A stretch of 64,000 nucleotides of DNA, taken from Escherichia coli. Its GTDB lineage: Bacteria; Pseudomonadota; Gammaproteobacteria; Enterobacterales; Enterobacteriaceae. The DNA lies in the NCBI RefSeq assembly GCF_041248615.1, contig NZ_CP158426.1. The stretch is one strand, 5' to 3'. How positions within the stretch are numbered: the first letter of the stretch is position 1; the number at the start of each line of letters is the position of its first letter. The notes beneath the pieces are model-generated. The model saw only the letters and a program-made list of their open reading frames with translations, searched no databases and was not told the DNA's origin. This document shows, piece after piece, positions 42,054-44,280 of this stretch. A program made the translations under genes and the position numbers.

Positions 42054-42467
42054 GTGCGATATTACAAAGAATTAACGGAGAATGTGATGATCAGGCAGAA
42101 GATTCTACAGCAGCTCCTGGAGTGGATTGAGTGCAATCTTGAGCACCCTATTTCAATCGAAGATATCGCACAGAAATCTGGCTACAGCAGACGCAACATC
42201 CAGCTTCTGTTCCGAAATTTCATGCATGTGCCTTTGGGAGAATACATTCGCAAACGAAGGCTTTGTCGTGCCGCCATTCTTGTCCGACTCACCGCGAAAT
42301 CTATGCTTGATATTGCACTCTCTTTACATTTTGACTCACAGCAGTCATTCAGCCGCGAATTTAAAAAGTTATTCGGCTGCTCTCCCCGTGAATACCGCCA
42401 CCGTGATTATTGGGATCTCGCAAATATCTTCCCTTCTTTTTTAATACGTCAACAGCAAAAGACGGAG
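42054..42467 (+). pseudogene. Rob-like AraC-family regulator, N-terminal HTH fragment, interrupted by IS2
   Basis: AraC HTH (ISIEDIAQKSGYSRRNIQLLFR ... FDSQQSFSREFKKLFGCSPREYR); ORF reads into the IS2 terminal repeat at 42468; occupies the ykgA position. Confidence 0.8.
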
Positions 42468-42478
42468 TGGATTTGCCC

Positions 42479-43384
42479 CTATATTTCCAGACACCTGTTA
42501 TCACTTAACCCATTACTGGCCTGCTGCCGCAGATATTCCCGTGGCGAGCGATAACCCAGTGCACTATGCGGATGCCATTCGTTATAATGCTCGAACGCCT
42601 CTGCAAGGTTCTTTGCTGCCGTTAACCCGTCTGGTTTAGGCATGATACTGATGTAGTCACGCTTTATCGTTTTCACGAAGCTCTCTGCTATGCCGTTACT
42701 CTCCGGACTCCGCACCGCCGTGTTCTTCGGTTCAAGCCCCAATATCCGGGCAAACTGCCGTGTTTCATTAGCCCGGTAGCATGAACCATTATCCGTCAGC
42801 CACTCTACTGGAGACGCCGGAAGCTCGTTGCCGAAGCGGCGTTCCACCGCTCCCAGCATGACGTCCTGTACTGTTTCACTGTCGAAGCCGCCCGTAGTGA
42901 CTGCCCAGTGCAGTGCCTCACGGTCACAGCAGTCCAGCGCGAACGTGACTCGCAGTTTTTCTCCGTTATCACAGCGGAACTCGAACCCGTCAGAGCACCA
43001 TCGTTGATTGCTTTCTTTCACGGCCACTTTGCCAGTATGTGCCCGTTTCGATGGCGGTACAGCGGTTTTTCGCTCAAGCAACAGCGCATTCTGGCGCATG
43101 ATCCGGTAAACACGTTTGGCATTGATCGCAGGCGTACCATCAAGTTCGGCCTGTCTGCGAAGCAGCGCCCATACCCGACGATAACCATACGTGGGCAGCT
43201 CTCCGATAACATGGTGTATACGGAGAAGCACATCCGTATCATCTGAGTGACGGCTGCGGCGACCATCTTTCCAGTCATCGGTTCGTCTGAGAATTACGTG
43301 CAACTGCGCACGCGACACCCGGAGACAACGGCTGACTAAGCTTACTCCCCATCCCCGGGCAATAAGGGCGCGTGCGCTATCCAC
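42479..43384 (-). CDS. insD: IS2 transposase OrfB (InsD)
   Basis: 301 aa, recognised IS2 InsD sequence ([30 protein letters not shown]...). Confidence 0.9.
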
Positions 43385-43707
43385 TTTTTTGCACGCCCGT
43401 ATTCAACGGCTTCTTTAAGGAGTTCATTTTCCATCGTTTTTTTGCCGAGCAGGCGCTGGAGTTCTTTAATCTGCTTCATGGCAGCAGCAAGTTCAGAGGC
43501 AGGAACGACCTGCTCTCCTGCGGCCACAGCAGTAAGACTTCCCTCCTGGTATTGCTTGCGCCAGAGAAATAACTGGCTGGCTGCCACACCGTGTTGCCGG
43601 GCAACAAGGGAGACCTTCATTCCCGGTTCAAAACTCTGCTGAACAATAGCGATCTTTTCCTGTGTAGTACGCCGTCTGCGTTTCTCCGGTCCTAAGACAT
43701 CAATCAT
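43342..43707 (-). CDS. insC: IS2 OrfA (InsC)
   Basis: ORF 43342-43752; conserved start [13 protein letters not shown] at 43707 gives 121 aa; overlaps insD as in IS3-family frameshift arrangement. Confidence 0.88.
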
Positions 43708-43798
43708 CTGCTCTCCAATGACTAGTCTAAAAACTAGTATTAAGACTATCACTTATTTAAGTGATATTGGTTGTCTGGAGATTCATGGGGCCAGTCTA

Positions 43799-44280
43799 CG
43801 GAGTGTAGATTAGTCAACTTTCCTGAGACACCTATTTTTGGCAATTCATTTAAATATGATATTGAAGTATCGAATAAATCACCGGATGAAGAAGTCAAAC
43901 TGCGACGTCATCATTTAGCCAGATGTATGAAGAATTTTAAGACGGATATCTATTTCGTCTCCACATTCGAACCGTCAACAAAATCGGTCGATTTGCTCAC
44001 AGTTGAAACTTTTGCCGGTACGGTATGCAAACAAACCGATTCAGAGATGTCGAAAGAGTGGACAATTAACCGAGGACTGTATGCCTCTTTCCGCTATGAA
44101 GGTGAGTGGGAGCACTACCCTGAATGGGCGCGAAACCTCTATCTGATGGAATTACCTGCCAGGGGGTTAGCCAGAGTGAACGGCAGTGATATTGAGCGAT
44201 TTTATTACAATGAAAACTTCGTCGAAATTGATAGCAATAACATTGTTTGCGAAATTTTTATCCCCGTTCGCCCGGTTTAG
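43799..44280 (+). pseudogene. Rob-like regulator, C-terminal GyrI-like effector-binding domain fragment
   Basis: In frame with 42054-42467 once IS2 plus one CGGAG copy (1336 bp) are removed; reconstructed ORF 891 nt (296 aa), Rob-sized. Confidence 0.75.

Follow-up and report, generated by a model that had tools for sequence, protein, structure and literature searches.

The 64,000-nt stretch of Escherichia coli DNA analysed here (the window) contains a gene for a two-domain regulator that is split by an insertion sequence (IS) and lies beside an adhesin gene. This raises the question of which gene was interrupted, whether the insertion is recent, and what it means for the regulator and for the neighbouring genes. 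Taken together, the analyses described below point to a recent transposition that split ykgA at its inter-domain linker, with a loss of YkgA function as the most likely net effect (probability about 0.92). The event is an ordinary IS insertion into an accessory regulator gene, and the disruption is already known from the public annotation, in which ykgA appears as two fragments of a pseudogene, together with a transposase of the IS3 family.

The complete window is 100% identical to positions 4099666–4163665 of the chromosome of strain NRZ14408 (NZ_LT599825.1), a clinical isolate that is resistant to carbapenems, gentamicin, tetracycline, and rifampicin (PMC8694152). The gene order at the locus is rclR, rclABC, an aldo/keto reductase (AKR) gene (40970–41839, minus strand), ykgA (plus strand), and fdeC (44405–48655, minus strand). 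The last encodes an inverse-autotransporter adhesin of 1416 aa, is intact, and is convergent with ykgA. The two stop codons are separated by a gap of 124 bp that contains two hairpins (44308–44385), which are probable terminators. Their inverted repeats are located at 44308–44343 and 44353–44385, and folding of the gap yielded a minimum free energy of −37 kcal/mol (z = −5.3 versus shuffled sequences).

The element occupies positions 42468–43798 and has a length of exactly 1331 bp. Its left end (TGGATTTGCCCC..., inverted repeat at 42468–42508) is the right inverted repeat of IS2 (IRR), and its right end (...GGGGCCAGTCTA, inverted repeat at 43757–43798) is the reverse complement of the left inverted repeat of IS2 (IRL), so that the transposase genes lie on the minus strand. 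The first of them, orfA (43342–43707), encodes the InsC/TnpA regulator of 121 aa (NCBIfam PRK09413) with one amino acid change compared to K-12 InsC, while orfB (42479–43384) encodes the DDE transposase part of 301 aa with 13 changes. The A6G site for the −1 frameshift that fuses orfA to orfB is intact (43384–43390, minus strand). The scores with the NCBIfam models for IS2 TnpA (273.5 bits, cutoff 229) and IS2 TnpB (700.8 bits, cutoff 597) are above the cutoffs. In RefSeq, the joined coding sequence (WP_114141418.1) is annotated as “IS3 family transposase, programmed frameshift”, and IS2 is not named. Of the characteristics of the IS2 group, the element has the length of ~1.33 kb, an imperfect IRL of 42 bp and IRR of 41 bp, orfA and orfB with the A6G motif, and a duplication of 5 bp. 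The boundaries, the length, and the intact ends that had been proposed from the sequence alone are in agreement with these results.

The IS3-family element IS2A of K-12 (insC1/insD1) shares the length, the terminal repeats, the A6G frameshift, and the 5-bp duplication with the element of the window. In contrast to IS2A, the element carries 60 evenly spread substitutions and no indels (95.5% nucleotide identity; 99.2% and 95.7% amino acid identity for OrfA and OrfB, respectively), and one base differs in each terminal repeat (C13A in IRL, A to G in IRR). The C13A change is absent from all 21 other IS2-family copies that were compared and is confined to the copies of NRZ14408. In ISfinder practice, the isoform cut-off relative to the reference IS2 is roughly 95% nucleotide identity. 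Judged by its sequence, the element is thus best called an iso-IS2 variant of borderline identity and not canonical IS2, and the name “IS2” used in the sequence-only reading holds at the level of the family. Two further copies in the NRZ14408 chromosome are 100% identical over 1331 bp, both with C13A, and are flanked by their own duplications, CATAT and GTCAG. Three identical copies, each with a different duplication, indicate recent transposition of the iso-IS2 within this lineage, and the sequences support the view that the element is transposition-competent and multiplying in NRZ14408.

The element is immediately flanked by two copies of CGGAG (42463–42467 and 43799–43803), as had been noted earlier. 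This direct repeat comprises exactly 5 bp and does not extend to 6 bp; it corresponds to nt 377–381 of ykgA and is present as a single copy in uninterrupted alleles. Removal of the element and one repeat joins 42054–42467 to 43804–44280 and, as previously proposed, generates an open reading frame of 891 nt without an internal stop codon. The proposed size of 296 codons, which starts at a GTG at 42054 and was likened to that of Rob, is 11 codons too long. The RefSeq start, with which the uninterrupted orthologues agree, is the ATG at 42087, which is preceded by a GGAG Shine–Dalgarno (SD) motif and the product of which aligns with Rob from residue 1 to residue 1. The restored coding sequence therefore has 858 nt and encodes a protein of 285 aa.

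The synteny and a nucleotide identity of 94.8% to K-12 b0300 (over 849 nt) identify the interrupted gene as ykgA, a paralogue of rob and not rob itself. In the reconstructed YkgA, Pfam predicts an AraC-type helix–turn–helix (HTH) region at residues 17–106 (HTH_18, HTH_AraC; HTH_18 at 27–106) and a GyrI-like domain at residues 127–283. Rob, which recognises marbox DNA and reacts to bile salts, dipyridyl, or decanoate, is the protein with two domains within the MarA/SoxS/Rob group, and it has the same architecture and a similar length (289 versus 285 aa). The alignment of YkgA with Rob, which had been suggested as a check, is collinear over the full length (32% identity, E 2e-47), and the best matches among solved structures in the PDB are the Rob entries 7vwy and 1d5y, also with full-length alignments. 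However, the scores with the NCBIfam RobA models are far below the cutoffs (195.4 versus 380 bits for NF012228, 173.2 versus 426 bits for NF011701). Together with the low identity and the different chromosomal locus of rob in K-12, a strain that has both rob and ykgA, this rules out that the gene is rob. The designation “Rob-like” is thus right for the architecture and wrong for orthology. According to PMC2064960, which cites Martin, Gillette and Rosner (2000), the SoxS/MarA/Rob group has YkgA as its fourth member. In the literature on ykgA, we found no functional study beyond this homology and stress-associated expression, and nothing that connects YkgA with fdeC.

For comparison, ykgA of K-12 is found at the same locus, between rclC and eaeH/fdeC, and is likewise an IS-caused pseudogene. 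However, its 3′ end has been lost (nt 1–661 are left), and IS3A abuts both the truncated ykgA and the truncated eaeH/fdeC. In contrast, the locus in the window has no deletion, it contains a simple IS2 insertion that can be reconstructed, and fdeC as well as the AKR gene are intact.

Uninterrupted alleles are common. The 858-nt coding sequence without the IS is present in one piece and with 100% identity in the strains 118UI, B1.H1.18, and MINF_7C, and in 118UI it is annotated as a gene of 858 nt (WP_001309280.1). An empty site with a single CGGAG therefore exists in nature, and the arrangement in the window is no product of chance. A ykgA gene in one piece is present in 4633 of 5426 complete genomes, so that the two fragments are not separate genes that happen to be neighbours in E. 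coli. The gene is absent or not of full length in the other 793 genomes (about 15%), to which K-12 laboratory strains contribute. The dN/dS values of intact alleles are 0.09–0.35, and the protein sequence of the HTH half hardly varies, so that ykgA is a functional and maintained gene in the species. Nevertheless, the loss of YkgA may be of little consequence, given that ~15% of the genomes lack a full-length gene. Three observations support the earlier suggestion that the insertion is recent: the restored allele is identical to uninterrupted ones, the chromosome has two additional identical IS copies, and among 5426 genomes a single one carries this variant of the IS at the site.

The position of the insertion determines what is left of the gene. 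The IS follows exactly 127 codons of ykgA (target codon 126/127) and lies in the inter-domain linker. The 5′ fragment (42087–42467, plus strand) comprises codons 1–127 with the whole AraC/XylS dual-HTH domain and the linker, and RefSeq annotates it as a pseudo-CDS for a [quoted passage not shown]. It retains the promoter region, the SD motif, the start codon, and the complete DNA-binding domain, and its reading frame continues for 28 codons into the IRR end of the IS up to a stop codon at 42552–42554, with a predicted product of 155 aa. The 3′ fragment (43804–44280, plus strand) comprises codons 128–285 and the stop codon, i.e. the whole GyrI-like effector-binding domain, and is annotated as a pseudo-CDS for a “GyrI-like domain-containing protein, missing N-terminus”. 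We found no promoter and no ribosome-binding site that belongs to this fragment, and the in-frame start candidates have no obvious SD motif.

These features suggest the following course of events. The iso-IS2 would have entered ykgA at codon 126/127 by the copy-out/paste-in pathway of the IS3 family, with duplication of CGGAG, and the insertion would abolish the full-length two-domain protein. The native promoter would still drive the expression of a 155-aa product that consists of the 127-aa HTH part and 28 IS-encoded residues, and the fragment with the sensor domain would be left without expression signals. In Rob, the C-terminal domain shields the N-terminal domain from Lon and ClpYQ and serves as a ligand-controlled off-on switch (PMC9178005). 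Because of this protective role in Rob, the truncated YkgA is unlikely to be stable, and the allele probably amounts to a null. A polar effect is not expected, because nothing lies downstream of ykgA in its own direction.

For the neighbouring genes, an influence of transcription from the IS was considered. IS2 can build fusion promoters, e.g. at ampC and acrEF, with an outward −35 element that sits in IRR (PMC9330008), and such promoters require a correctly spaced −10 element in the flank (PMC9330008; PMC3299598). The IS2 junction promoter (Pjunc) depends strictly on a spacer of 17 bp and on a real −10 element, and it is stronger than PIRL, the native promoter of IS2 (PMC3299598). The wild-type right end of IS2 by itself had no detectable promoter activity (PMC12095673). 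Like the elements that formed the fusion promoters at ampC, acrEF, and neoR, the element of the window is an IS2-family member and carries its outward −35 in IRR. This precedent is the argument for outward promoter activity toward the adjacent adhesin locus, as the sequence-only reading had proposed. In contrast to these cases, IRR has no usable −10 element here and is directed to the left, away from fdeC. As fdeC lies on the minus strand and is convergent with ykgA, its promoter lies past 48655, at a distance of about 4.9 kb to the IS, and a transcript that leaves the IS toward fdeC would be antisense RNA at most. In addition, the two strong hairpins stand between ykgA and fdeC, and no plus-strand promoter-like site was found between 41700 and 44500. 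The consensus scan of this region detected promoter-like sites on the minus strand only, three in number versus 3.8 ± 1.9 expected, which is uninformative alone. Altogether, the probability that an outward IS2 promoter alters the expression of fdeC is close to negligible, this part of the sequence-only reading is not upheld, and the transcription of fdeC would be unaffected by the insertion.

The AKR gene is the sole gene that is co-oriented with transcription exiting the IRR end, and thus the only one for which transcripts from the IS would have sense orientation. Leftward transcription, either from a fusion promoter or by read-through from the transposase promoter, could raise its expression: IRR faces this gene, both are on the minus strand, and the consensus terminator scan of 41700–44500 revealed no terminator-like site in between, a result that is likewise uninformative alone. 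However, the start of the gene is 629 bp away from the IS, PIRL is the weaker of the two IS2 promoters, and the flank offers little. With TGGAAA taken as the −35 hexamer of IRR, a position that was inferred from the 17-bp spacer rule and IRL TAGACT as −10, the flank hexamers CTCCGT, TCCGTC, and CCGTCT (spacers of 16, 17, and 18 bp) each match TATAAT at only one of six positions. An effect on the AKR gene is hence unlikely, and an increase of its expression by such read-out very improbable.

To put the insertion into the context of the species, IS2 insertions at ykgA were compared across the genomes. In 59 genomes, IS2 elements lie within ykgA or next to it, and they occupy at least 20 sites. 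A query with the IS in the orientation of the window matched across the region in 36 genomes, and a query with the flipped IS in 23 genomes with the opposite orientation. An orientation bias was thus rejected; the apparently uniform orientation arose because the query carried the IS in that orientation. When 22 loci were mapped to the base, at least 20 distinct insertions emerged, which lie between −1133 and +960 counted from the start of ykgA, with one more in fdeC. Duplications of 5 bp were present at these insertions and at all 23 other IS2-family copies examined. For comparison, control regions were analysed with chimeric queries of the same design, which yielded 35 genomes for yahL-yahM (GC 0.43) and 5 for the neighbouring regulator gene rclR (GC 0.46); all these region counts refer to genomes and not to phylogenetically independent events. 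As the yahL-yahM control was hit equally often, neither a special IS2 hot spot nor a recurrently selected inactivation is indicated for ykgA, which resembles other AT-rich, dispensable DNA as an IS2 target. The control counts fit the preference of IS2 for targets in curved or bent DNA (PMC3299598), combined with a tolerance of dispensable loci. An alignment of 22 oriented target sites revealed a weak preference for T at the second duplicated base (15 of 22) as the sole signal, and no noteworthy resemblance to the ends of the IS.

At the target in ykgA of NRZ14408, different IS2 variants are found in different strains. The strains 21AH004, 21AH006, and 21AH007 carry a different variant at nt 377–381, with the same duplication and the same orientation as in NRZ14408. 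The two variants differ at 26 positions between IS positions 13 and 1278, and the flanks are identical over about 3.2 kb. Two independent insertions into the same target appear to be the more likely explanation of these sequences. Alternatively, the insertion could be common by descent, and the IS sequence could have been overwritten later by gene conversion from another copy. The shared duplication, orientation, and flanks are compatible with this, and IS2 copies are visibly mosaic, so that conversion between IS copies does occur. However, the change at position 13 is common to all NRZ14408 copies, and a conversion tract would therefore require a crossover at most 12 bp from the terminus of the IS. 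There is also a precedent for independent insertion at the same site: at −59 to −55, 57 positions between 32 and 1325 distinguish the IS2 variant of KOr024 from that of EC130. Descent followed by conversion is thus unlikely, and we favour independent insertions, so that two exact sites at this locus (nt 377–381 and −59 to −55) have apparently been hit independently by different IS2 variants, and IS2 appears to reuse exact 5-bp targets in a fixed orientation. A third candidate for same-site insertion, at 569–573 (S163-2 versus 10035210-2), was rejected, because gene conversion of a central tract in one ancestral insertion accounts better for it.

The reuse of the linker also bears on the fate of the regulator. 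The cut might have altered the function of YkgA rather than abolished it, leaving this multidrug-resistant isolate with an effector-independent activator, possibly of marbox-type promoters, that has the size of SoxS or MarA. The 5′ fragment, with its retained expression signals and its whole HTH domain, would allow this; it aligns end to end with the SoxS model (1–106 of 107, 111 bits) and with MarA/RamA, and three independent IS2 insertions occurred within 6 bp of the linker in the same frame and orientation (nt 371 in OkiPb, nt 377 in the window and in 21AH004). However, Rob needs its C-terminal domain for stability as well as for activity (PMC9178005), and an HTH-only product with a foreign tail of 28 aa is likely to be degraded. 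Furthermore, the other insertions are scattered along the whole gene and upstream of it, and the AT-rich control region collects IS2 equally, suggesting target preference and not selection. An active HTH-only product is thus clearly improbable, and it is more doubtful still that linker insertions have been kept by selection in clinical and animal isolates because they uncouple the HTH domain from the sensor and create a constitutive SoxS/MarA-like mini-activator. Loss of YkgA function remains the preferred reading.

By itself, the insertion matters little, as it is one more IS-mediated pseudogene in clinical E. coli. The carbapenem-resistant isolate (PMC8694152) does, however, offer a natural ykgA knockout, or an HTH-only allele, for which isogenic-like intact alleles are available, and its chromosome harbours an iso-IS2 variant that, judged by its identical copies, appears to be actively expanding in this strain. 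The remaining interest lies in the improbable case that cutting the linker has left an active HTH-only regulator and in the exact-site reuse by IS2, because the independent reuse of identical targets could help to define the target recognition of this element.

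Insertion of IS2 at ykgA is recurrent. An IS2-family element lies inside or next to the gene, i.e. in the region corresponding to window positions 41000-45900, in 59 of 5426 complete genomes, with one orientation in 36 genomes and the opposite one in 23. At least 20 distinct insertion sites were found in the site survey, which was based on the compared genome loci L002-L004, L008-L016, and L020-L028. Two exact 5-bp targets each appear to have been struck independently, judging from the sequences of the inserted elements. The target at nt 377-381 of ykgA is shared by NRZ14408 and 21AH004, and that at −59 to −55 by KOr024 and EC130; in both pairs the IS2 variants differ and the orientation is the same.

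The same chimeric-query test as for ykgA was applied to two further loci of the window. IS2 was found nearby in 35 genomes at the AT-rich yahL-yahM locus (8233-9402) and in only 5 genomes at the rclR region (37313-38482), and apparently none of these 5 has IS2 inside rclR itself by this test. Neighbouring non-essential loci differ strongly in IS2 density.

The NRZ14408 chromosome (NZ_LT599825.1) carries two additional copies that are 100% identical to the IS in the window, at 1923031-1924361 and at 4064254-4065584, the latter lying some 35 kb ahead of the window. One of the two splits an autotransporter gene (target duplication GTCAG), and the other (CATAT) has a DEAD/DEAH helicase gene on one side and a TPP riboswitch on the other. 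An alignment of the IS2-family copies at loci L001-L028 revealed a canonical type and several types that are about 4-5% divergent. Many copies are mosaic, e.g. those of ML35 and JNEC-KY204, with a canonical left part and a variant right part, and that of 10035210-2, with a foreign central block. This mosaicism demonstrates recombination or gene conversion among IS2 variants.

The small aldo/keto reductase region between rclC and ykgA is very variable in structure across E. coli. The gene is intact in the window (40970-41839). All that is left of it in K-12 (ykgQ) and many other strains is a remnant of 129 bp, and IS5 interrupts it in 118UI. Elsewhere in the window, the RefSeq annotation of this strain flags both a hypothetical gene (33288-33838) and ykgL (56900-57125) as frameshifted. 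Between yahK and yahJ, which presumably adjoin each other in K-12, a four-gene sugar/AI-2-type ABC transporter cluster and an ASCH-domain gene are present (11073-16170).

Two stable hairpins, one with a GC-rich 15-bp stem (44308-44343) and one with a 9-bp stem followed by a U-rich run (44353-44385), lie in the 124 bp that separate the stop codons of the convergent genes ykgA and fdeC. The region 44308-44385 has a fold z-score of −5.3, and the hairpins are probably terminators; a simple terminator scan did not pick them up.

The two halves of ykgA differ considerably in divergence, as estimated for the window versus loci L009, L010, L020, L025, and L027. Between-strain dS and dN reach 0.36 and 0.064 in the GyrI-like half (43804-44280), for which alleles of 283-aa and 285-aa proteins are also seen, but do not exceed 0.064 and 0.007 in the HTH half. 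The far higher divergence of the GyrI-like half suggests either old allelic lineages or recombination that extends over the ykgA 3′ end and the spacer separating it from fdeC. The window and 21AH004 show no differences outside the IS from 40400 to 44947, followed by 47 clustered differences in the 3′ part of fdeC (44948-45900 examined), which indicates a recombination breakpoint and mosaic adhesin alleles in fdeC.
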